IMG/VR virus record: IMGVR_UViG_3300044706_000011
Span: 1-39,960 of that record
Direction: 5' to 3' (one strand)
Source of the DNA: a virus
DNA: 39,960 nucleotides
The notes beneath the pieces were generated by a model that was given only the letters and a program-made list of their open reading frames with translations, was not told the DNA's origin and searched no databases. Positions within the stretch are counted from its first letter, which is position 1; each line of letters opens with the position of its first letter. A program made the position numbers and the translations under genes. Positions 8,800 through 19,546 of the stretch are shown here, piece by piece.

Positions 8800-9828
8800 T
8801 CACCTCACCGGAGTCACGATTTTACCACGGCGTAAGTAGTGTTTTCGAGTGGTCTTGACGCTATCGTGGCCCAGCAGATCGCTGGCAGCCTGCTCGCCTC
8901 GTTTGATTGAGGTGTCGTCCGCTGCCTTCGCCCGCAGGTCGTAAAACCAGAATTCCTTGATGGCATCGGCAAGTTCTGGATGCTTCTCGGCTGCCGCTGC
9001 TTTTGCCGCGGTGAACTGGTCTCGCAGGATCTGCTTCGTCATCGGCTGGCCGTCCCGAACCATCAGAATCTGTGCATGGACAGTCTTATGGTTGGCCTTC
9101 CGCGCCTTTATGCGCTCGATCAGGTCGGCCAACTCTCCGACTATGGCAATCCGCAGGCGCTTGCCTGTCTTGCCCTGTGCAACCGCCAATGTCCCGTCTT
9201 CAATGTCGTCCATGCGTGCCTTAAGGGCGTCGCCCGGCCGTTGTCCGGTCAGGTATGAGAAATCCATAGCTTCCTGCAGTGCTTCGCTAGCATGGGATCG
9301 CACGGCGGCGTACACCTCATCTGTGATGTACACCTCCCGCTTCTTGAGAGAGTGTCCATCGACTCCTCGGCACGGATTTTCCGCATCAGTGTACCCCCAT
9401 CGACGAGCGCGGTTCCAGAGGGCCGAGAACAGCCGCTTACAGCGATTCGCCGTGGTCGGTTTGTCCTTGTGCTTCTTCAGGAAATCATCGATTGTGATAG
9501 GCTTGATCTGGCTGAGAGAAAATTCAGCGAATTCGGCCTGCAGGTGCTTCATATCGGACTTGTGCGTGGCCTGGGTACTGGTAGCCAGCGTTGGCAGCAC
9601 TTCAGCAACATATTTAACGATCACGTCGCCAAATGTCGGCTCGGCTGTCTTTTCGATCTGGTTCAGCTCGGCATACCGGCGCAACGCCATGAAATAGTCA
9701 TCGCCAAGAGGGATTTCTTTGCGAGGCTTTGCCCCGGTATCGAAGTAGTAATAGACCCTCCCACTGCGCTGCACACGTTTGCGCATGTGCTTCGGCAGGT
9801 TCATATGTTTTGTTGATTTGCGTCCCAT
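8800..9828 (-). CDS. int: Tyrosine integrase (site-specific recombinase)
   Basis: C-terminal HDLRAKAADD ... LLGHDSVKTTRKHYLRR (R-H-R-Y type motifs). ATG at 9828 lies 4 nt after the xis-like stop; the ORF-track start at 9867 is a TTG. Confidence 0.9.
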   Translation of the reverse strand: MGRKSTKHMNLPKHMRKRVQRSGRVYYYFDTGAKPRKEIPLGDDYFMALRRYAELNQIEKTAEPTFGDVIVKYVAEVLPTLATSTQATHKSDMKHLQAEFAEFSLSQIKPITIDDFLKKHKDKPTTANRCKRLFSALWNRARRWGYTDAENPCRGVDGHSLKKREVYITDEVYAAVRSHASEALQEAMDFSYLTGQRPGDALKARMDDIEDGTLAVAQGKTGKRLRIAIVGELADLIERIKARKANHKTVHAQILMVRDGQPMTKQILRDQFTAAKAAAAEKHPELADAIKEFWFYDLRAKAADDTSIKRGEQAASDLLGHDSVKTTRKHYLRRGKIVTPVR

Positions 9829-9832
9829 TTTC

Positions 9833-10036
9833 TTACAGTATTCGTGCGACAGGCTTTGGCTCGGCAACCATCTGTTTGCGCCCTTCGATCGCAGCAGATG
9901 GCACTACCGGCTTGCCTGCTGCATTCACGTGGAACGGCAAGCCCATACGGCGCAGAGCTTCTATCTGCTTCGACTTGATCTTACGGCCGGTCAGTTCGGC
10001 CAGTTCATCCGGCGTCAAAAACATAGCCATCTTCAT
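9833..10036 (-). CDS. Excisionase-like small DNA-binding protein (DUF4224-type)
   Basis: MKMAMFLTPDELAELTGRKIKSKQIEALRRMGLPFHVNAAGKPVV pattern. Immediately upstream of int. AGGAAGGA SD. Confidence 0.7.
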   Translation of the reverse strand: MKMAMFLTPDELAELTGRKIKSKQIEALRRMGLPFHVNAAGKPVVPSAAIEGRKQMVAEPKPVARIL

Positions 10037-12852: not shown

Positions 12853-13400
12853 TCGGTTTCTCCTTCCTTGCTGGCGGCCGGGGCTTCGGCCTTGATCGCG
12901 CGCTCCAACATGTCAGTGATCAGGATGAATGCCGCCTCCGCCTGTGCGGGCGTGCTGTAGTGCAGAGTGAAGCGGCCTTCCAGATCGTCTGGTCCGCTCG
13001 CGAAGAAGCCGCTTTCGTAGCCTTCGCTCAGCTTTGCTAGCGCCTCGTTGCGCGCCTCTTCGCTGTACGAGAGGCGAACCTCGCGCTCGATGGCACGTGC
13101 GAATTTCAGCCAGCCTGGAGGCAATCTAGTCGGGACCTCGTACGTGATCGATGTCAGGGCCGAGAGAATCTGCTCGTCGGTCAGTTCGGCCTGCGCATGT
13201 ACTGCTGGCACGGCATCGTCAGACGGCAGCACCTTCGCAATCATCTTCAGCGTGCCAGCGACTACGTACTGCTGCGGGTCGGTGTTAGGGATTGCTGCCA
13301 CTGCTCCGTCAGTGCACATGTAGGCAAGCCACGCTTCAGCAGCATTTGTCACGTTCTGAACGAGCTTCTTGCGCATCTCGTTGAATTCTTTTTCGCTCAT
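12849..13400 (-). CDS. Hypothetical protein (183 aa)
   Basis: Clean ORF with purine-rich SD and high third-position GC. Confidence 0.7.
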   Translation of the reverse strand: MSEKEFNEMRKKLVQNVTNAAEAWLAYMCTDGAVAAIPNTDPQQYVVAGTLKMIAKVLPSDDAVPAVHAQAELTDEQILSALTSITYEVPTRLPPGWLKFARAIEREVRLSYSEEARNEALAKLSEGYESGFFASGPDDLEGRFTLHYSTPAQAEAAFILITDMLERAIKAEAPAASKEGETE

Positions 13401-13412
13401 GCTCTTCTTTCG

Positions 13413-13757
13413 TTAGATGATTTTTGCTTCAATGCGCCGGGTAGCTTCAAGTGTTTGCCATGCTGAGAACTTCGCCTGCGCTGCGGTGATCAGCCAGCGC
13501 AAGGACTCCTCTTTCTCGACGGCAGCCTTCAGACCATCCAGCACTTCCAGATACTCCGGATGCGCGTATGCCTCTCGTTCCTGCGCGACGGCCGACTTGT
13601 GACCATCGATCTCGGCTTGCCGCATTAGGAGCGCCTTCTTCGATTTCCGAAATTCTTCCAAGTGAACGCGGTCAGCCTTGGCCTGCGCATATTCGGATGC
13701 GTGATCTCGAATGAAATCGAGCACCTTAAAGACGTCGATCTTGACGTCCTGTGTCAT
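13413..13757 (-). CDS. Hypothetical coiled-coil protein (114 aa)
   Basis: ATGA overlap with the upstream gene at 13754-13757. The ORF-track extension to 13859 lies inside the upstream CDS. Confidence 0.65.
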   Translation of the reverse strand: MTQDVKIDVFKVLDFIRDHASEYAQAKADRVHLEEFRKSKKALLMRQAEIDGHKSAVAQEREAYAHPEYLEVLDGLKAAVEKEESLRWLITAAQAKFSAWQTLEATRRIEAKII

Positions 13758-14053
13758 GGCCGCTTGCCCCATGCCGGCTGTCGCAGGGCCGCACGCTGCT
13801 TCGCCAGTTCTTCGATCTCGGCCACGCACGCGTCCATCAGCGTGAGAGTGTTGCGGCATCCTTCCAGCAAATCCTCGACTCTCTCTGGCACGTCGTCGCT
13901 ATCCGGCTGCATCCGGCGAAGAATCTGGGCTGCAGAGGCACCAAGTTGACCGCACAGCTTCGACAGGGCGAGCTTGGCATCCTCATGGGCGCCACGAACT
14001 GTCGAATAGCGGCCACGTGCGATCATGAGTTCATCGTCGGTCAGGTCGATCAT
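13754..14053 (-). CDS. Hypothetical protein (99 aa)
   Basis: ATGA overlaps with erf and with the next gene. Confidence 0.65.
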   Translation of the reverse strand: MIDLTDDELMIARGRYSTVRGAHEDAKLALSKLCGQLGASAAQILRRMQPDSDDVPERVEDLLEGCRNTLTLMDACVAEIEELAKQRAALRQPAWGKRP

Positions 14054-14667
14054 GCTTGCTCCGCGAGTTGTTGGTTGAGCTGTGCCTTGCGCTCGCTGGC
14101 GTGCTTCTGGAGCGCTTCTTTGCTGGCCGGGTACATGGCCACTGCTGCTTTCAGGTGCTCGCCGATCTCTTTGATCGTAGCGGCACCCTTGATGGCGTTG
14201 ACAGCATTCGCAAGGCCAACGCTGTCAGGCTGCGCGCGCACTTCGTGAACCTCGGCATCTGCATCGATGCTGGTTTCCTCGGTCGGGATGCAGAAGGCTT
14301 GGAATGCTGCGTACTTGTATGCTGCGCTCATCGCCTTGTTCGTGGCTTTGTCGCCGCTATCCATCGCTTCGCCGAACGTGGACACAGTGTGCTTGCTGCC
14401 ATCTTCAGCGCTCACCAGATCGAACTCGGCTTGCACCGTCACGTAGAACAGCGCGTTGCCCTTGGCGTTCGTGCGCTCAACGCATTCGCGCTTGATGCAA
14501 CGAGGCAGAACGCACAGCTTGTGCTTGGCCAGTAACGGAGCCAGAGCGTTGTACACAGCGTCGATGCCGCGGAAGTTGAAGCCCTGCGCCTGGTTTCGGC
14601 TGTCTTTGGAGATACCGCGTGCAGCCAGTTCGGCGGCGACTTCTGCGATTGCTTGGTAAACTTTCAT
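14050..14667 (-). CDS. erf: ERF-family single-strand annealing recombinase
   Basis: GFNFRGIDAVYNALAPLLAKH ... GEAMDSGDKATNKAMSAAYKYAAFQAFCIPT matches conserved ERF (P22 Erf family) blocks. Confidence 0.85.
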   Translation of the reverse strand: MKVYQAIAEVAAELAARGISKDSRNQAQGFNFRGIDAVYNALAPLLAKHKLCVLPRCIKRECVERTNAKGNALFYVTVQAEFDLVSAEDGSKHTVSTFGEAMDSGDKATNKAMSAAYKYAAFQAFCIPTEETSIDADAEVHEVRAQPDSVGLANAVNAIKGAATIKEIGEHLKAAVAMYPASKEALQKHASERKAQLNQQLAEQA

Positions 14668-14674
14668 GGTGTCC

Positions 14675-14851
14675 TCAGAATGGGATCAGGTCATCGTCCA
14701 AGTGGTGATCAGTGCTCGCCTCGTACTGCGGAACATGTTCGTCGTGCCAGTGAAGCATTTCCTCTGCTTGCTCGTCCTCGGTCATGCCATCAATGTACGC
14801 ATCCCTCAGATTGCGCTTGGCATGGGCTGCTTGGCTGTATTTGCGTTTCAA
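14675..14851 (-). CDS. Small acidic protein ending in an SSB C-terminal-tip motif (..HHLDDDLIPF). 58 aa from TTG 14851 or 36 aa from ATG 14785.
   Basis: Hand translation. The TTG start overlaps the upstream stop (TTGA). The stop lies 7 nt before erf, whose GAGGA SD is in the gap. No OB-fold-sized body. Confidence 0.5.
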   Translation of the reverse strand: MKRKYSQAAHAKRNLRDAYIDGMTEDEQAEEMLHWHDEHVPQYEASTDHHLDDDLIPF

Positions 14852-14961
14852 CTCGGTCTCCAGATAGCGGTTTGGTCAGCGTCATCCAGCTCCTGCACTT
14901 CCGCTACGATGAACAGGAATGCAGCGAGGAATACGAGGGCTTGGGCTATGTTTCGAATCAT
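14848..14961 (-). CDS. 37-aa single-TMD peptide (MIRNIAQALVFLAAFLFIVAEVQELDDADQTAIWRPS)
   Basis: ATGA overlap with the upstream gene stop at 14958-14961. Below the ORF-track size cutoff. Confidence 0.45.
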   Translation of the reverse strand: MIRNIAQALVFLAAFLFIVAEVQELDDADQTAIWRPS

Positions 14962-15266
14962 GGCTCGTCTTTCGGCGGCTTCATGCCCTTGATGTTTCCG
15001 AGCTTGTCTTGCGCACGTTGAAGCATCCGCCTGGCTTTGGTCAGTTCGTTTTCAGCCTTAGCAAGCAGATAGCTTTTGGCCGCTTCCCATGTATCGTGAT
15101 ACTGCGCAAATTCAGAGTTCTTAGCTTCGCGACGCTCACCCTTTTCGTCCTTGGACCAGACTCTGCTGTTTCTGGCCAAATAGACTGATGCTTCGGTCTC
15201 TCGTAAAACTTCCACTCGTTCAATCTTGTTGTCGCCCCAGCCAGTCTTATATTTCACGATGCTCAC
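14958..15266 (-). CDS. Hypothetical protein (102 aa from GTG 15266)
   Basis: GGAAGGA SD 8 nt upstream of the GTG. The ORF-track start at 15332 is a TTG without an SD. Confidence 0.6.
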   Translation of the reverse strand: MSIVKYKTGWGDNKIERVEVLRETEASVYLARNSRVWSKDEKGERREAKNSEFAQYHDTWEAAKSYLLAKAENELTKARRMLQRAQDKLGNIKGMKPPKDEP

Positions 15267-15355
15267 GGCAAAATTCCTTCCATAATTCCAGCAATCAAGA
15301 TCACCACGCCCAGCCCAGTCATGCCGAACCAAGGCCGCGCATCAGTCCATTCCAT
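15263..15355 (-). CDS. 30-aa single-TMD peptide (MEWTDARPWFGMTGLGVVILIAGIMEGILP; alternative ATG at 15379)
   Basis: Stop overlaps the downstream GTG start (GTGA). Weak SD. Confidence 0.35.
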   Translation of the reverse strand: MEWTDARPWFGMTGLGVVILIAGIMEGILP

Positions 15356-15408
15356 CCCGTCCAGCAGTAAGCAGTCCATTAGGCTGCGGCGCGCGATGCG
15401 GGCGGCGA

Positions 15409-15624
15409 TCATGGTTGCACCTCGACAGGCTCGATCAGGTCGAATTCAGACTCCTCGCCATGGAACCAGTACGAGCCAGTAGGGCTGAAAATAGACGCGC
15501 GGTCGCCCCAATACGCGATGATGTTGTCGCTACCAGCAGCCGACGCATAGACTGTGGCTACATCGCCGCCACGCATGCGCCAAGTGCTGCCAGGCTCAAA
15601 GGTCAAATTGTTCTCGGATGCCAT
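15409..15624 (-). CDS. Hypothetical protein (71 aa)
   Basis: AGGAG SD 8 nt upstream. First CDS downstream of the ORF-free island. Confidence 0.65.
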   Translation of the reverse strand: MASENNLTFEPGSTWRMRGGDVATVYASAAGSDNIIAYWGDRASIFSPTGSYWFHGEESEFDLIEPVEVQP

Positions 15625-15668
15625 CGCTGCTGCTCCTGTTCTGTCCGGCGCCGCCGGCGGTTGGTTTA

Positions 15669-15692
15669 TTGGTGCCGGTTACGCTCTCCGGC
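15669..15692 (-). repeat. Y-type hairpin copy (minus sense GCCGG-AGAGCGUAA-CCGGC-ACCA) near the 3' end of the island
   Basis: Plus strand ttggtgccggttacgctctccggc resembles the module left ends. Confidence 0.4.
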
Positions 15693-15782
15693 GCCGCGCA
15701 GGTACTACAAGGCTTGGGTTTCGCCTCCCTGTCGGCCGTTTTGCCTTCGTTGCGGTTCAACTGAACGGACCGAACTCTCCGC

Positions 15783-15908
15783 TGTGGTGGCCGGTGCTGA
15801 TCTCCGGCTTATCTGGTCCATCCGTTACGGCCCCTTCTGCTCATTTGGGGTATGGCTTCACCCACTATTGCCAGCATCACGATCGCATCAGCCTGCGAAT
15901 TCACCACA
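15783..15908 (-). ncRNA. Module A: about 126-nt element with conserved inverted termini and a unique core
   Basis: Left end tgtggtggccggtgctgatctccggc (15783-15808), right end gcatcagcctgcgaattcaccaca (15885-15908). Minus-sense UGUGGUG/CACCACA closing helix. GCCGG-N9-CCGGC hairpin whose loop AUCAGC complements the upstream GCUGAU. Confidence 0.55.
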
Positions 15909-15910
15909 GA

Positions 15911-16014
15911 ACAAGGGGCTGGATTCGAACCAGCGACCTCCTGTAACATCGACCACCTGTTTTCACCCGGGCAGATCGCCAATGTCAGGCGCCCTACCTC
16001 TGGGCTACCCTTGC
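15911..16014 (-). ncRNA. tRNA-shaped RNA element (104 nt) with acceptor, D and T arms but a 50-nt rod in place of the anticodon stem-loop
   Basis: Minus sense reads GCAAGGG-TA-GCCC-AGAGGTA-GGGC-G-[50 nt]-AGGTC-GCTGG-TTCGAAT-CCAGC-CCCTTGT. The acceptor extends to 12 bp (15906-16019). No anticodon loop can be drawn and no CCA is encoded. Confidence 0.7.
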
Positions 16015-16093
16015 TCTGTAGGGGCTCCTTACGGGAGCCAATCGGCGGCACTAACTTTCTCCGCCCGCCACAACAGTTATCGATTGCTGCTCG

Positions 16094-16214
16094 TGTGGTA
16101 GCCGGTGCTGAATTTCCGGCATACGGATCCTTATCCGCTTGTTCCCGTCCCTGACTACCCACCGTTTGGAACCGTGGTCCGCCAGTTGGCGCATCAGCCT
16201 GCGCATTCACCACA
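16094..16214 (-). ncRNA. Module B: second copy of the conserved-termini / variable-core element
   Basis: Left end tgtggtagccggtgctgaatttccggc (16094-16120), right end gcatcagcctgcgcattcaccaca (16191-16214; 23/24 identical to A). The closing helix contains a G.U that would be an A-C mismatch on the + strand. Confidence 0.55.
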
Positions 16215-16290
16215 TGACGAGCACCTGTCCGGGCGTCCCCTTTAAGACAGGCCGCGACCAAGTGCCGCGTTCCTAGGATTGCTCGTCATG
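16213..16290 (-). ncRNA. 78-nt element closed by a perfect 11-bp helix, directly 5' of module B (same position as the tRNA-shaped element relative to module A)
   Basis: Minus sense CATGACGAGCA ... TGCTCGTCATG encloses two hairpins (CGCGG-CACTTGG-TCGCG and CCTGTC-N16-GACAGG). Confidence 0.5.
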
Positions 16291-16811
16291 TGATGACTGG
16301 CTTACGACCAGTCAGGCGAGCTATTCCCGTAATTCGCGCCGTAGTCTTTCGGCGTTGCAGCGGTTTGATGCATCCATGTGTCGATGCTTATTCGTGGCCA
16401 ACACATGGCGCACATCACGGGCTTTTCCCCTCGCGCTACCGAAGGATTGAAAGGTGCAACGCGCCACATTTGTTCAGTGCCGTTCTGTTCTCGGCCGTCA
16501 GGGCATTTCAGATCCCGCTGCGTCGATTTCCTGACCCGACATCAGGGCAAGCCTTGCGTTGTACGTCGGTGCAAGGCGATCCGTTAGCCGTATTACTTAC
16601 CCCGGCTCCGGGCGATTAGGTGCAGGCTCTTCCCCTGCTTGGCGATGCTCACCTGAGTCATCGCGTTGCCCGCGCTGCCACTTGGCTGCGGGCCGGCGGC
16701 CGACCAGGCGTTAGTTCATATATGCACTATGGGATTTGCTGTAACTTCGCATATCGCCTCCTGTCAGTAGTTGAGTCCTCGTTCATCGCTTGGGACCATC
16801 GCGCAAAAACT

Positions 16812-17015
16812 TCAGTCGTGTTTACTACTCATCCTTTGCATGAGGGCTCTGTGAATTTCAGTCCCATTGCTCCTGTACGGGATATCAAACTGCGCCTCCC
16901 ACTCTCGACGCCTGCGGTCGTCCTCCATCGCATACGCAACCGTGTACGCATCGCCTTCGTCGTCCTCGCGCCGCTGACGTGCGCTGTAGCCGAAGTCGTC
17001 GTAGTGGCGAGACAT
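16812..17015 (-). CDS. Hypothetical acidic/basic small protein (67 aa)
   Basis: The ATG at 17015 overlaps the upstream stop (TGATG). Last CDS before the ORF-free island. Confidence 0.55.
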   Translation of the reverse strand: MSRHYDDFGYSARQRREDDEGDAYTVAYAMEDDRRRREWEAQFDIPYRSNGTEIHRALMQRMSSKHD

Positions 17016-17122
17016 CAGAAGCAGCCCAGCAGGAACAGAACGCCGACGATGATCACGGCAACTGAGAAGACAGTTATGCCGTCTACGATCAGGTCGTGTG
17101 CGGTGTAGCGGTTGTGTTCCAT
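17015..17122 (-). CDS. 35-aa single-TMD peptide (MEHNRYTAHDLIVDGITVFSVAVIIVGVLFLLGCF)
   Basis: GGAGG SD 8 nt upstream. Starts 2 nt after the upstream stop. Confidence 0.5.
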   Translation of the reverse strand: MEHNRYTAHDLIVDGITVFSVAVIIVGVLFLLGCF

Positions 17123-17124
17123 GG

Positions 17125-17487
17125 TCAGGCCTCCGACACACCTAGAGCTGCACGTGCTTCCTCGGGCCAGTAGGTGCTTTCGTTCCAATTCGGCGTTTCG
17201 CTTTCCATGCGAAAGCACGGGATTTCTTCGCCATCAATTTCAAGAACTGGAGTGGCCCACGTAGACGCAAGATATGTGTACGTGTTCTCTTTCGGAACCG
17301 GAATACCATCGCGCCAGATCGTGCCCGAGGTCCATTCCATGTCGCTCGACAGGCCGGCGACGGCCTCAGCCGGATTGCGCTCAGCAATGATCTGTGCGGC
17401 CTTGATCCAGTCGAAGACCATCCGCTCACGGAAGCGGTTCGCTTCGCCCATTGCAAATGCTGTCAGTGTGTCCATTCTGTTCTCCAT
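17125..17487 (-). CDS. Hypothetical protein (120 aa; alternative ATG at 17475)
   Basis: Clean ORF. GGAGAA precedes the second ATG. Confidence 0.7.
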   Translation of the reverse strand: MENRMDTLTAFAMGEANRFRERMVFDWIKAAQIIAERNPAEAVAGLSSDMEWTSGTIWRDGIPVPKENTYTYLASTWATPVLEIDGEEIPCFRMESETPNWNESTYWPEEARAALGVSEA

Positions 17488-17535
17488 GCCCTACTGGGCG
17501 GTAACTGCCCGCAGTAGCGGGCGCGGTTGATCAGT

Positions 17536-17940
17536 TCAGTACTCCGGGCGAGCAACGATAAGGAAGCCACCGTAGTAGCCGTTGTGCTCGTTGTGGCTTG
17601 CCATCGTGAGGACGCCTTTGCTCGTCTGTATTTCGAGGAACTGCACCTCGTGCTCACCGTACTTGTCGTAGATGCCGGGCGCGTCTTTGATCTCAGCGCC
17701 CAGAAGCTTCGAGCCGACGTAGTCACCCAGCTTGTCGTCGGTGCACATGTAGCGCTTCTCGCAGCACGACTGGCCGTTATCGAATAGCTTCATGCGCGAG
17801 CCGTCGTCGAACGTGAAATGCAGTGCATCGTCATCGCCGAGCGACAGTGCGGTGATCGTTTTGCCGACGGCGGCGGTGAAGGTCTCGACCGTTTCTGCGT
17901 TACCGCCAAGCTGGCCGAGCATGACTCCCATTCCTAGCAT
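17536..17940 (-). CDS. Hypothetical protein (134 aa), first gene of the early-left operon
   Basis: GGAG SD. Lies 44 nt downstream of the predicted PL start. HNEHNGYYGGF motif of unknown function. Confidence 0.75.
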   Translation of the reverse strand: MLGMGVMLGQLGGNAETVETFTAAVGKTITALSLGDDDALHFTFDDGSRMKLFDNGQSCCEKRYMCTDDKLGDYVGSKLLGAEIKDAPGIYDKYGEHEVQFLEIQTSKGVLTMASHNEHNGYYGGFLIVARPEY

Positions 17941-17990
17941 CTTCTGCTCCTATCGGTTCGCCCTTCCGGGCTTGGTTGCGATGTAGAGCT

Positions 17991-18019
17991 ATATTAGCCC
18001 ACGGCTAATTGGAGTGCAA
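17991..18019 (-). promoter_or_regulatory. PL candidate: TTGCAC-17 nt-TAATAT (minus strand)
   Basis: -35 at 18019-18014 and -10 at 17996-17991. Overlapped by operator OL1. Same -10/operator arrangement as PR. Confidence 0.6.
17993..18009. promoter_or_regulatory. Operator OL1: perfect palindrome ATTAGCC-CAC-GGCTAAT
   Basis: 17-bp dyad with the same half-sites as OR1. Confidence 0.7.
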
Positions 18020-18026
18020 GCGATAT

Positions 18027-18043
18027 TTTCGCCAAAGGCTAAT
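18027..18043. promoter_or_regulatory. Operator OL2 (imperfect): TTTCGCC-AAA-GGCTAAT
   Basis: One perfect half-site, the other 5/7. 17 nt from OL1. Confidence 0.5.
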
Positions 18044-18106
18044 ATTTTCGATGGCAAGCTGTTGCGCTTGAGATGCGATCAAGCTGTTTAGGCGGCACGC
18101 CCGAGC

Positions 18107-18129
18107 ACCTGGACGCAAAAAAGCCGCGT
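18107..18129 (-). terminator. Rho-independent terminator after the moron gene (minus strand)
   Basis: Minus sense GCCGCG-CACGA-CGCGGC followed by TTTTTT. Confidence 0.75.
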
Positions 18130-18167
18130 CGTGCGCGGCATTGAAGGAGGGGGCTACGGGGATGGGA

Positions 18168-18416
18168 TCAGTTCAAAGGATTCCCTAACTTGCTAAGCAT
18201 CTCATCTATCGACTCAGACGGCTCTTTAGGCATCATCATCAGAATGTCATCCAGGCGACGATTGGTAGCCTCGGCATTCTCTACTAGTGACTGGCCGGCG
18301 CGATTAGCGGCATTGATACTCTGTTGCAATCTGTCAACAGAAGTGCGGAGTCCTCTCAGTTCCCAGAGTATGCAAAAAAGTACGGCACAAATGAGGTAAA
18401 CAGGAAATTCTGTCAT
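18168..18416 (-). CDS. AT-rich moron: 82-aa N-terminally anchored membrane protein between the repressor and PL (candidate lysogen-expressed exclusion factor)
   Basis: TMD FPVYLICAVLFCILW. Coiled-coil remainder. Visibly lower GC than its neighbours. Has its own downstream terminator. Confidence 0.65.
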   Translation of the reverse strand: MTEFPVYLICAVLFCILWELRGLRTSVDRLQQSINAANRAGQSLVENAEATNRRLDDILMMMPKEPSESIDEMLSKLGNPLN

Positions 18417-18535
18417 TTTACAAATTGGTTAGCTGTTAATAGAATCGTCCGACAATGCAATTGACCTAGCGCAAAATACTGTGCGGGTGTACAGTTGTTT
18501 GGTGCCAATTCTTGGCAGCCCATCCCCAAGAGATT

Positions 18536-18562
18536 TCAAAAGAGGCGCACAGAGACGGCGCC
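18536..18562 (-). terminator. Possible terminator downstream of the repressor gene (minus strand)
   Basis: Minus sense GGCGC-N9-GCGCC followed by TCTTTTG. Confidence 0.4.
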
Positions 18563-18720
18563 GTAACATAAGCCACCATGAGACTAAGTCTCACTAGGAG
18601 ATGCCGATGCAGAACTTCCCAGAGATACGAGAGATGTACGCCCAAATGAATGATGTCGGCCGGTCATACCTTGTCGGGATGGCCCGCCAAATCCTACGCA
18701 GTTTCCCAAGGAAAGATGTG

Positions 18721-19143
18721 TCATCTCCTCATGCTGAGCAAGTCATCGATGTCCATGCTCTCAATAACAAGCCGAACTGCGTCGTCTATGAGTTCCCGTT
18801 GATCGGAGTTCGCCAGACGGTAGACCGCAAGAAGACGGATCTCCGTTGAGGCTTCCTCAAGAATCTTTCGTAGAGCCACTGTTTGGGTGGTCTCTACGAG
18901 AGACACCTCCTGATGTTCAACGTCCATCCATCCTTCCGGCAGCCCCAAAGTCTTCTCAATCTCTCTACATGATCCACTGCTGATCACTCGTGGCTTACCA
19001 GTCACGGAATGAGTAGAGGCGTTCAACCATTGGCTCACCTGGGACTGGCCCTTTTGTAGCCGATCAGCGAGCCCCTGCACTCCTCCAGATTCATCTCGTA
19101 GGCGTCGTAAGTTATCGCGCCGTACATCTTCGATTTTTTTCAT
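18721..19143 (-). CDS. cI: CI-like repressor with N-terminal HTH and no S24 peptidase domain (140 aa from ATG 19143; GTG 19161 possible)
   Basis: GLADRLQKGQSQVSQWLN HTH-like segment. Divergent from the cro-like gene across operator-bearing DNA. The predicted PRM start coincides with ATG 19143. Confidence 0.8.
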   Translation of the reverse strand: MKKIEDVRRDNLRRLRDESGGVQGLADRLQKGQSQVSQWLNASTHSVTGKPRVISSGSCREIEKTLGLPEGWMDVEHQEVSLVETTQTVALRKILEEASTEIRLLAVYRLANSDQRELIDDAVRLVIESMDIDDLLSMRR

Positions 19144-19149
19144 TTTTGC

Positions 19150-19178
19150 ATTAGACGCCACGTTGGCTAAATGTTGAA
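19150..19178 (-). promoter_or_regulatory. PRM candidate: TTCAAC-17 nt-TCTAAT (minus strand), predicting a leaderless cI mRNA
   Basis: -35 at 19178-19173 and -10 at 19155-19150. The ATG at 19143 is 7 nt after the -10. Confidence 0.5.
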
Positions 19179-19194
19179 TTCGCCAATGGCTAAC
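19178..19194. promoter_or_regulatory. Operator OR2 (imperfect): ATTCGCC-AAT-GGCTAAC
   Basis: Related to the ATTAGCC-N3-GGCTAAT dyad. Abuts the PRM -35. Confidence 0.5.
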
Positions 19195-19201
19195 AACATG
19201 C

Positions 19202-19230
19202 TTGCGTTGCCATTAGCCTTGGGCTAATAT
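19202..19230 (+). promoter_or_regulatory. PR candidate: TTGCGT-17 nt-TAATAT, predicting a leaderless cro mRNA
   Basis: -35 at 19202-19207 and -10 at 19225-19230. The cro ATG at 19237 is 7 nt after the -10 and no SD is present. Confidence 0.55.
19212..19228. promoter_or_regulatory. Operator OR1: perfect palindrome ATTAGCC-TTG-GGCTAAT
   Basis: 17-bp dyad overlapping the PR spacer and -10. Confidence 0.7.
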
Positions 19231-19236
19231 GGATGC

Positions 19237-19479
19237 ATGAACCTGTCTACCTACCTTTCTCAGCAGCGAGGCCGAAAAGCAGCCTTGGCAAAAGCCATCG
19301 GCGTGCATGCCCCTGACATCAGTCGGTGGATCGCTGGCGTACGGCCGATTCCGTCCAAATACGGCGCAGCTATCGAGGCCGCCACCGGAGGCATCGTCAC
19401 ACGCAAAGACCTGTTCCCGAACGACTGGCGAAGCATCTGGCCCGAGCTGGAGCGTCGCCGTTCGCCTAAACCGCAGTAA
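19237..19479 (+). CDS. cro: Cro-like HTH regulator (YdaS/Cro-type)
   Basis: RKAALAKAIGVHAPDISRWIAGVRPIP HTH. Divergent from cI. Confidence 0.8.
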   Translation: MNLSTYLSQQRGRKAALAKAIGVHAPDISRWIAGVRPIPSKYGAAIEAATGGIVTRKDLFPNDWRSIWPELERRRSPKPQ

Positions 19480-19546
19480 CCCCCTTTAGCACCAGAAGCA
19501 CCAGAAGTCCAATCCTAGTAAACCCGCAACACCAAGGAGAAGCACC

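Follow-up and report, generated by a model that had tools for sequence, protein, structure and literature searches.

What can an RNA be that keeps the acceptor, D and T arms of a tRNA but has no anticodon loop? The question is raised by a 114-nt element on the minus strand of a viral DNA of 39,960 nt (positions 1 to 39,960 of the IMG/VR record IMGVR_UViG_3300044706_000011; hereafter the window), where it lies at positions 15906-16019. An original prediction had described the element as tRNA-shaped and had proposed several roles for it. We found that it is a tRNA-derived, conserved domain that does not decode, and that it is the 5′ domain of a composite phage RNA family. In this family a long helix, which we call stem S, is followed by a second conserved structure, which the original prediction had named module A.

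A conserved, non-decoding tRNA-like domain

The minus-strand transcription of 15906-16019 in the original prediction was exact on re-reading, and the tRNA shape that it described, with acceptor, D and T arms and a 5-nt variable loop, was recovered both by the Rfam tRNA model and by folding. RF00005 matched 15910-16014(-) with 51.8 bits (gathering score 29, E = 2.1e-8). The alignment takes in every one of the 71 positions of the model (1-71), with a 42-nt insertion that replaces nine positions of the anticodon-loop region. The minimum free energy (MFE) of the 114-nt domain is -53.4 kcal/mol (z = -4.64), and none of 200 shuffled sequences was as stable. The MFE fold consists of a 12-bp acceptor-like helix, U8-A9, a 4-bp D stem with the loop AGAGGUA, G26 and a long rod, followed on the 3′ side by the 5-nt variable loop AGGUC and the T arm GCUGG-UUCGAAU-CCAGC. 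The rod, 50 nt long with 17 bp in total, is built from 4 bp, a 2-nt UA bulge on its 3′ strand, 8 bp, a 1x1 G.G mismatch, 5 bp and a 12-nt loop. The original drawing of this rod, as 4 bp, an A/UUA internal loop and 13 positions, stood except for the internal loop, where the fold pairs A35 with U74. Direct reading showed that the nucleotides of the L shape are complete (U8, A14, G15/C48, G18G19, G26/A44, G53-C61, U54/A58, and C56). Two short strings in the rod loop CCCGGGUGAAAA (15960-15971) are probably due to chance: the self-complementary CCCGGG, through which a kissing dimer is possible, and UGAAAA, in which one may see a Phe-like anticodon loop.

Although the domain lies well above the threshold of the tRNA covariance model (51.8 vs 29 bits), it lacks the 5-bp anticodon stem and the 7-nt loop with U33 and an anticodon that a decoding tRNA needs. 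It has instead the 42-nt insertion, the 17-bp rod and the 12-nt loop. Standard ARAGORN called neither a tRNA nor a tmRNA anywhere in the window (0 of each), and the missing tRNA call had been expected. When introns were allowed, the program forced a call of "tRNA-Phe(GAA)" that is not credible, in which the variable arm has 20 nt and a 19-nt intron sits at 29/30. The original prediction had stated that no anticodon loop can be drawn and that the element cannot decode; a normal loop was indeed obtained from neither ARAGORN nor the Rfam tRNA model. Since no standard anticodon stem-loop can be drawn, the domain is very unlikely to decode.

With canonical tRNAs (RF00005, including phage tRNAs) the domain shares the acceptor, D arm, variable loop, T arm and L-shape nucleotides, and with phage tRNAs also the strand and the kind of untranslated RNA island in which it lies. 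It differs from them in having a rod of 50 nt and 17 bp in place of the 5-bp stem and 7-nt anticodon loop, a 12-bp acceptor helix, and no CCA. Mimicry in the style of tmRNA or Y RNA, both of which had been proposed, found no support. The tRNA-like domain of tmRNA also keeps the acceptor and T arm and has a long helix for the anticodon arm; however, the window element has a complete D arm, its long helix is closed by a loop, and it has no tag frame, no CCA and no G3.U70, position 3-70 being A-U. Bacterial YrlA RNA ends in a long Ro-binding helix and its acceptor-like stem is closed, whereas the window element ends at the acceptor side and has the topology of a tRNA. The two are alike in being non-decoding and in joining a tRNA-like module of T arm and D arm to a long helix. 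YrlA has been described as a mimic of tRNA (PMC4201824). An Rfam scan of positions 13000-19500 returned no Y-RNA family at E <= 5 and included no search aimed at a neighboring rsr gene. We also rejected the idea that the element is the tRNA fragment of a phage attachment site (attP), as both tRNA halves are present and the integrase is ~6 kb away.

The complete cloverleaf-plus-rod was found directly upstream of module A in two further IMG/VR contigs of ~39 kb each, L125 and L129, where it scores 51.8 and 51.2 bits, respectively, with the Rfam tRNA model. The three full copies vary in 7 of 114 columns. Five of these changes are one-sided and keep the pair (G.U to A-U and G-C to G.U in the rod, C-G to U.G in the T stem, G-C to G.U and G.U to G-C in the acceptor); of the other two, one breaks a pair beside the G.G mismatch of the rod and one falls in the rod bulge. 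The D loop, T loop, variable loop and rod loop are without change. The block in L129 is 92.7% identical to that of the window over 150 nt (~95.6% inside the element), compared with 69-82% for neighboring genes that can be aligned at all, and the middle of module A is wholly different among the three genomes.

Two other loci of this lineage keep only parts of the domain. In L155, the acceptor strands and T arm are as in the window and module A is present, but the D arm and a hairpin-on-stem insert differ. The metagenome contig L186, which has the same upstream leader, shares stem S and the T arm and has neither D arm nor rod; downstream of its stem S, a ribosome-binding site and a gene stand where module A would be. 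Within the window lineage, the constant part is the acceptor-like helix stacked on the T arm.

A recently captured host tRNA pseudogene, with a rod not conserved in related phages, had been named as the finding that would speak against the original prediction. The rod is kept in both L125 and L129, and a donor host tRNA was not found. A search of 185,579 species genomes with the D-arm string gave only chance matches in coding sequence and one unrelated tRNA-Pro, and among 47 distinct phage tRNAs there was only a weak resemblance, to the tRNA-Met(CAU) of L002. In searches for relatives of the locus, the 1.6-kb block had no match among GenBank phages, a first metagenome pattern search gave 0 matches, all homologues found for the downstream 71-aa open reading frame (ORF) were without the RNA block, and the search with the upstream ORF returned L125 as the sole relative.

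The 5′ domain of a composite phage RNA family

The 12-bp extension of the acceptor and the direct passage of its 3′ end into module A had both been noted in the original prediction, and both are present. What it had missed is the context, as this helix is the stem S that precedes module A throughout the family. In 115 of 124 units from IMG/VR phage contigs, a helix of at least 10 bp runs up to module A or stops no more than a few nucleotides short of it. This helix has a median length of 14 bp, and its sequences differ widely among loci yet stay paired. By folding, the 5′ strand is located 40-130 nt upstream of the 3′ strand that abuts module A, and the interior measures 19 to ~260 nt (median 53). 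In the window, L125 and L129, stem S is 12 bp long with a gap of 0 to module A; in the window, its 3′ strand even overlaps the outer stem of module A by 2 nt.

The window holds two complete units, of which the first combines a plain stem S with module A copy 1 and the second a tRNA-like stem S with copy 2. The tRNA-like element is the stem S domain of unit 2: its 12-bp helix ACAGAGCAAGGG/CCCUUGUUCUGU forms stem S, with the cloverleaf as interior. The stem S of unit 1 encloses ordinary hairpins, which shows that the slot of the tRNA-like domain can hold non-tRNA structure as well. L125 lacks unit 1: the window carries ~470 nt more (unit 1 and the spacer hairpins), at ~16021-16476 as against positions 6000-6001 of L125. 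The breakpoint of this difference is the 5′ edge of the tRNA-like domain.

Stem S also occurs without module A. In L135 (Klebsiella phage ST512-KPC3phi13.3, MK422448; 1494-1642), a typical enterobacterial stem S is followed, with a gap of 0, by a real tRNA-Arg(UCU) and no module A. Together with L186 this indicates that stem S and module A are separable modules. A reading of GUGCUCUUUCCGUUGU, 5′ of module A, as a boxA was ruled out because the sequence is the 3′ strand of the covarying long helix.

Module A consists of an outer stem (GUGGUG/CACCAC), a hairpin with a GGCUGA loop, a variable middle and a GCCGG-AGAUCAGCA-CCGGC hairpin. Its core, GGUGAAUnCGCAGGCUGAUGCG ... GCCGG-loop-CCGGC-CACC with complementary loops, is found in both window copies, which are conserved in their 5′ and 3′ parts and have unrelated middles. 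The complementarity between the two loops is exact over at least 5 nt in 124 of 151 distinct units, and most exceptions are G.U wobbles. In L129 both loops have changed in a compensatory way, to GGCCGA and AUCGGC, and covariation is also seen in the outer base pairs of the outer stem. From these comparisons, module A is a conserved, pseudoknotted four-helix element whose hairpin loops are predicted to pair with each other. The loci were gathered by exact motifs, and variation of the core is thereby hidden.

The 5′ motif of module A, GGTGAATNCGCAGGCTGATGCG, occurs in more than 120 IMG/VR contigs among the matches listed. One enterobacterial subtype, which goes unannotated, was found in 99 phage records of GenBank as well as 1639 of 5426 complete Escherichia coli genomes (~30%), and a related query matched HK620, CUS-3, HK633, the P1-like RCS47, the N4-like IME11 and 157-kb Klebsiella phages. 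As members are found in classical E. coli phages, the family is readily open to experiment. mEp460 and an Stx2 phage carry the unit in the pL leader, with the repressor gene as its immediate upstream neighbor. The unit of HK620 (L190 2400-2690; NC_002730 ~15980-16270) is flanked by pR'/qut on one side and by the annotated late terminator tQ on the other, so that the Q-independent late leader transcript should contain it. In Magnus and IME11 the unit occupies untranslated stretches, adjoining a tRNA array in Magnus. Elsewhere in mEp460 (L121 984-1172), matches to C4 antisense RNA (83.6 bits) and isrK (67 bits) mark the antirepressor region, ~2.4 kb from module A and unrelated to it. Weak, sub-threshold matches to permuted tmRNA (30.7 bits, E = 0.017) or to the tmRNA T arm were seen upstream of or at stem S in two enterobacterial-type loci (L006 6883-7012 and 6768-6782; L046 2870-2887); these, and L124 as well, were judged to be due to chance or to the T arm only.

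Module A is absent from Rfam 15, as tested with the window and with enterobacterial members, and literature searches by keyword and by sequence string returned nothing on it, although a description in a subscription journal is not excluded. The putL site of HK022 has the same place as the unit in mEp460 and the Stx2 phage, that is, the pL leader downstream of the repressor gene; put RNA comprises ~70 nt and two stems (PMC9378689). A nut- or put-like antiterminator reading was nevertheless rejected: the motif of module A is missing from HK022 even at 3 mismatches, and the unit also occurs in the Q-controlled late leader of HK620 and in the RNA islands of virulent phages. Theta ribozymes, minimal HDV-like ribozymes encoded next to tRNAs in gut phages (PMC10879173), are similar to module A in being structured, untranslated modules that share a strand with a tRNA-shaped element and lie a few nucleotides from its 3′ end. 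However, they form a nested double pseudoknot and are cleaved at their own 5′ end, whereas module A, which is found in phages of Proteobacteria, has no such fold by inspection and no Rfam ribozyme match. An HDV-like or theta fold was therefore rejected, as the order of the helices could not be mapped by inspection onto P1-P2-P3-P1'-P4-P2'.

A tRNA-like acceptor/T-arm stack, sometimes extended to a full cloverleaf with an enlarged anticodon arm, recurs in the 5′ domain. A T-loop motif is present 8-30 nt upstream of module A in 55 viral contigs, ~50 of them distinct. Of 48 distinct units, 29 have a helix that starts exactly at the T-stem junction, as in tRNA, and continues for 11 or more uninterrupted pairs; in 36 of the 48 it reaches 7 or more. 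In an alignment of 28 acceptor/T-arm minihelices, for which acceptor 5′ strands were chosen by complementarity and the T-stem filter asked only for 4 or more of the 5 pairs, the share of paired cells is 95.2%, changes on both sides are seen in 15 of 17 pairs, and the covariation score is 1.06, compared with 0.22 for shuffles and 0.11-0.22 for slid controls. The Rfam tRNA model also scores above threshold at the stem S slot of L166 (52.4 bits, 96 nt), L161 (44.9 bits, 64 nt) and L167 (42.1 bits, 98 nt), with further matches in L138 (41.7 bits, 98 nt), L165 (41.1 bits, 64 nt), L180 (40.9 bits, 126 nt) and L148 (30.6 bits, 68 nt); these lengths are abnormal for a tRNA. Standard ARAGORN rejected all seven of these slot matches save for a forced 98-nt call in L166, and no credible anticodon loop was found in them. 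L167 and L138 have the same 12-nt loop in their insert hairpin, with compensatory changes around it, and L158 folds independently into a cloverleaf with a long, rod-like anticodon arm. Outside the window lineage, tRNA-like domains with an enlarged anticodon region are thus carried independently in the stem S slot.

The units are also associated with real tRNA genes. In the loci that were fetched, ARAGORN placed 52 tRNAs on the strand of module A and 1 on the opposite strand. A real tRNA starts 6-12 nt past the 3′ end of the unit in five units, and in four units a real tRNA ends ~82-87 nt before module A, at the start of stem S. Genes for tRNA-Met(CAU) and tRNA-Ser are seen 6-12 nt after the 3′ end of module A in L002, L066, L008, L119, L143 and L098. 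With such tRNA-like spacing inside phage tRNA arrays, the units are presumably co-transcribed with the tRNAs.

Possible roles of the tRNA-like domain

The reading that we favor, with a confidence that stops just short of even, is that the tRNA-like domain serves in cis as a tRNA-shaped structural or processing handle of an untranslated stable-RNA operon. The unit would be transcribed on the minus strand, within the ~1.2-kb untranslated stretch of the leftward early operon. By keeping the tRNA core and exchanging the anticodon arm for a 17-bp rod, the domain would provide a compact, nuclease-resistant handle whose acceptor/T-arm stack and elbow could be read by tRNA-maturation enzymes of the host (RNase P, RNase Z/BN, TruB/TrmA). 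Such a handle may delimit and stabilize the adjoining module A RNA and separate the tandem units, in a way that would resemble the real tRNAs flanking module A units in other phages. It would take no part in translation.

Punctuation by RNase P and RNase Z had been among the roles first proposed, and the embedding of units in phage tRNA arrays fits this idea. In MALAT1/mascRNA-type and mitochondrial tRNA punctuation, where cleavage by RNase P and RNase Z has been demonstrated, the flanks are single-stranded at the acceptor end. These signals resemble the window element in being a tRNA-shaped fold within a longer transcript that adjoins a functional RNA, whose end the fold could define. In the window element, by contrast, the helix continues across the site of the putative cleavage.

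Several observations weigh against a processing handle. The acceptor-like helix is unbroken over 12 bp, with no interruption at the canonical 7-bp boundary, so that any RNase P site would lie within a duplex; bacterial RNase P acts poorly on such a site, which weakens the case for punctuation by RNase P and RNase Z. It is possible that RNase III cleaves the long helix or that no cleavage takes place. CCA is not encoded at the 3′ end of the domain, as the original prediction had pointed out. Most members of the family have a plain hairpin with no tRNA feature in the stem S slot, and hence the tRNA shape is not required for the role of the family. The rod shows no double-sided covariation in the three full copies, which are ~96% identical, so that its pairing is backed by thermodynamics and conservation. 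Moreover, these genomes are mosaic, and on sequence comparison the conservation of the element could fit selection or recent exchange alike.

An alternative is a neutral passenger, a phage tRNA gene or part of one that became trapped in the permissive interior of stem S and whose anticodon arm then drifted, leaving only a stable fold. We consider this unlikely. The interior of stem S is hypervariable, with the wide range of lengths given above, and it is quite different in the close relative L186 despite the same leader, stem S and T arm. Donor sequences are near at hand, since module A units live among tRNA genes, and the rod lacks double-sided covariation. On the other hand, three genomes retain every nucleotide that makes a tertiary contact in the tRNA core, with no variation among them, many lineages conserve the acceptor/T-arm geometry, and tRNA-like fillings with enlarged anticodon arms recur in unrelated lineages with inserts that covary. 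The searches by D arm and among phage tRNAs also turned up no close donor.

Two further explanations seem still less probable to us, and to a similar degree. In the first, the domain is architectural: stem S would stack coaxially on the outer stem of module A and the elbow or rod would make contacts within an uncut RNA of ~240 nt that could be, for example, a ribozyme, a ribonucleoprotein or an oligomer. The absence of a gap between stem S and module A in most units, the 2 nt common to both helices in the window and the continuity of the helix, which is not broken at 7 bp, all agree with this, as does the self-complementary CCCGGG in the rod loop. The core of module A is almost invariant from enterobacterial phages to the window phage, and near-invariant cores are typical of catalytic or ligand-binding RNAs. 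The halves are nonetheless separable, as stem S occurs without module A before a real tRNA in L135 and before a gene in L186, which argues against a single architecture.

The second of these explanations is that of a natural tRNA scaffold, in which the rod or its loop would be the part that binds a protein or an RNA and the tRNA body would serve to express, process and protect it. In engineered scaffolds, the cargo is carried on the anticodon stem of an intact tRNA body and the product is released free and CCA-ended. The window element carries its insert on the first 4 bp of the anticodon stem, exactly the position of such cargo, although it is internal in a longer RNA and has an extended, paired acceptor. 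tRNA scaffolds engineered to express RNA have been described (PMC3753655). The three genomes show no change in the rod loop, and the insert hairpin of L167 and L138 covaries around its identical loop. Against these points, the rod loop found no complementary target beyond chance in the window (3 matches at <=2 mismatches, one of which is its own sequence, vs 2.6 expected), inserts of different lineages have no motif in common, and L186 has no rod.

Even less probable, in our judgment, is the decoy role of the original prediction, in which the element would act as a sponge for host defense nucleases that target tRNAs or for tRNA-binding enzymes. Phage tRNAs can counter anticodon nucleases, and the top half of the tRNA is intact in an element that its early-operon location predicts to be expressed. 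However, anticodon nucleases read the anticodon loop, which is missing here, toxins that attack the acceptor end depend on a free CCA, which the element does not encode and does not expose, and most members of the family lack the tRNA shape altogether. A functional tRNA gene with a spliced intron can be set aside almost entirely: the insertion does lie within the anticodon arm, where tRNA introns occur, and ARAGORN with introns can draw a Phe(GAA) loop, but its forced model needs the intron at 29/30 and the 20-nt variable arm, inspection shows no bulge-helix-bulge (3-4-3) in a fold that has a 2-nt bulge, 8 bp and a 1x1 mismatch, the ~33-nt insert is far too short for a group I intron and gave no match to Rfam intron models, and the genome is that of a temperate phage of a bacterium.

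As the 5′ domain of a composite RNA, the element points to a larger RNA family and not to a broken tRNA gene. We hold it possible, though doubtful, that the tRNA-like domain and module A represent an undescribed and very widespread class of stable phage RNA, with a 5′ domain that acts through tRNA mimicry and with module A as a new functional RNA. On this reading, temperate and virulent phages of Proteobacteria would carry the class in their leaders and tRNA islands, and the RNA would either be matured by tRNA-processing enzymes or mimic their substrates. If so, module A may process itself as a ribozyme, modify RNA polymerase or termination, or serve as an RNA factor of counter-defense, and the tRNA-shaped variants would show that the 5′ domain works through tRNA mimicry. 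Such mimicry is a known theme; here it would appear as an interchangeable domain of a larger and apparently undescribed phage RNA. The tRNA-shaped variants offer a concrete handle on the role of the 5′ domain, namely recognition of the acceptor/T-arm stack and elbow. Were module A to prove catalytic or regulatory, a major class of phage RNA would be added, and it could explain the long untranslated leaders of lambdoid phages.

Genomic setting and the RNA block of the window

On its sequence, the window is assigned to a temperate phage; its DNA gave a single weak match, to a Ralstonia phage. Both units lie in an untranslated block (Table 1) between the repressor side and the Erf/integrase side. 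In this block, from 15625 to 16811, we detected no credible reading frame; neither strand showed a promoter-like site, and no terminator on the minus strand was credible.

Table 1. Features of the window and of its RNA block, with positions, strand and the basis of each assignment.
Feature	Position	Strand	Basis
Integrase	8800-9867	(-)	
Erf-like annealing protein	14050-14667	(-)	
Untranslated block of the leftward early operon, both units inside, 1187 nt	15625..16811	(-)	ORF map
Module A copy 2: outer stem, GGCUGA-loop hairpin, variable middle, AGAUCAGCA-loop hairpin; loops complementary	15784..15907	(-)	motif, fold, covariation
tRNA-like domain (stem S domain of unit 2), 114 nt, cloverleaf and rod	15906..16019	(-)	Rfam tRNA, MFE fold, conservation in L125 and L129
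Acceptor-like helix, 3′ strand, CCCUUGUUCUGU	15906..15917	(-)	fold; final 2 nt common to module A outer stem
Variable loop AGGUC and T arm GCUGG-UUCGAAU-CCAGC	15918..15939	(-)	Rfam model, fold, T-stem covariation across lineages
Rod in place of anticodon arm, 12-nt loop CCCGGGUGAAAA	15940..15989	(-)	Rfam model and fold
D arm GCCC-AGAGGUA-GGGC with G18G19	15991..16005	(-)	Rfam model and fold; invariant in three close copies
Acceptor-like helix (stem S), 5′ strand, 12 bp, ACAGAGCAAGGG	16008..16019	(-)	fold; identical in L125, L129, L155 and L186
Spacer between unit 1 and the tRNA-like domain, two predicted hairpins	16020..16094	(-)	fold, weak (z = -1.1)
Module A copy 1	16095..16213	(-)	motif, fold
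Stem S domain of unit 1, ACAUGACGAGCA/UGCUCGUCAUGU, perfect 12-16 bp around two ordinary hairpins, not tRNA-like	16212..16291	(-)	fold
Repressor	18721-19161	(-)	
Cro-like regulator, divergent	19237-19479	(+)	

A 150-aa ORF with a TTG start at 15809-16261(-) was judged to be spurious; it covers the tRNA-like element together with module A copy 1 and some of copy 2. It is not conserved in L125 or L129, ~470 nt are absent from L125, and the length variation within the family is incompatible with a reading frame.

The flanks of the two units are conserved as well. The leader of ~330 nt upstream of the units, 16476-16811(-), is 94% conserved with L125 (5342-6001) and partly present in L186 (upstream of 1961); it has no Rfam match. 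The trailer that follows module A copy 2, 15625-15783(-), is highly conserved in L125 and partly in L129, and it contains GC-rich inverted repeats (GGCGCCGG ... CCGGCGGCGCC) just ahead of the start codon of the next gene.

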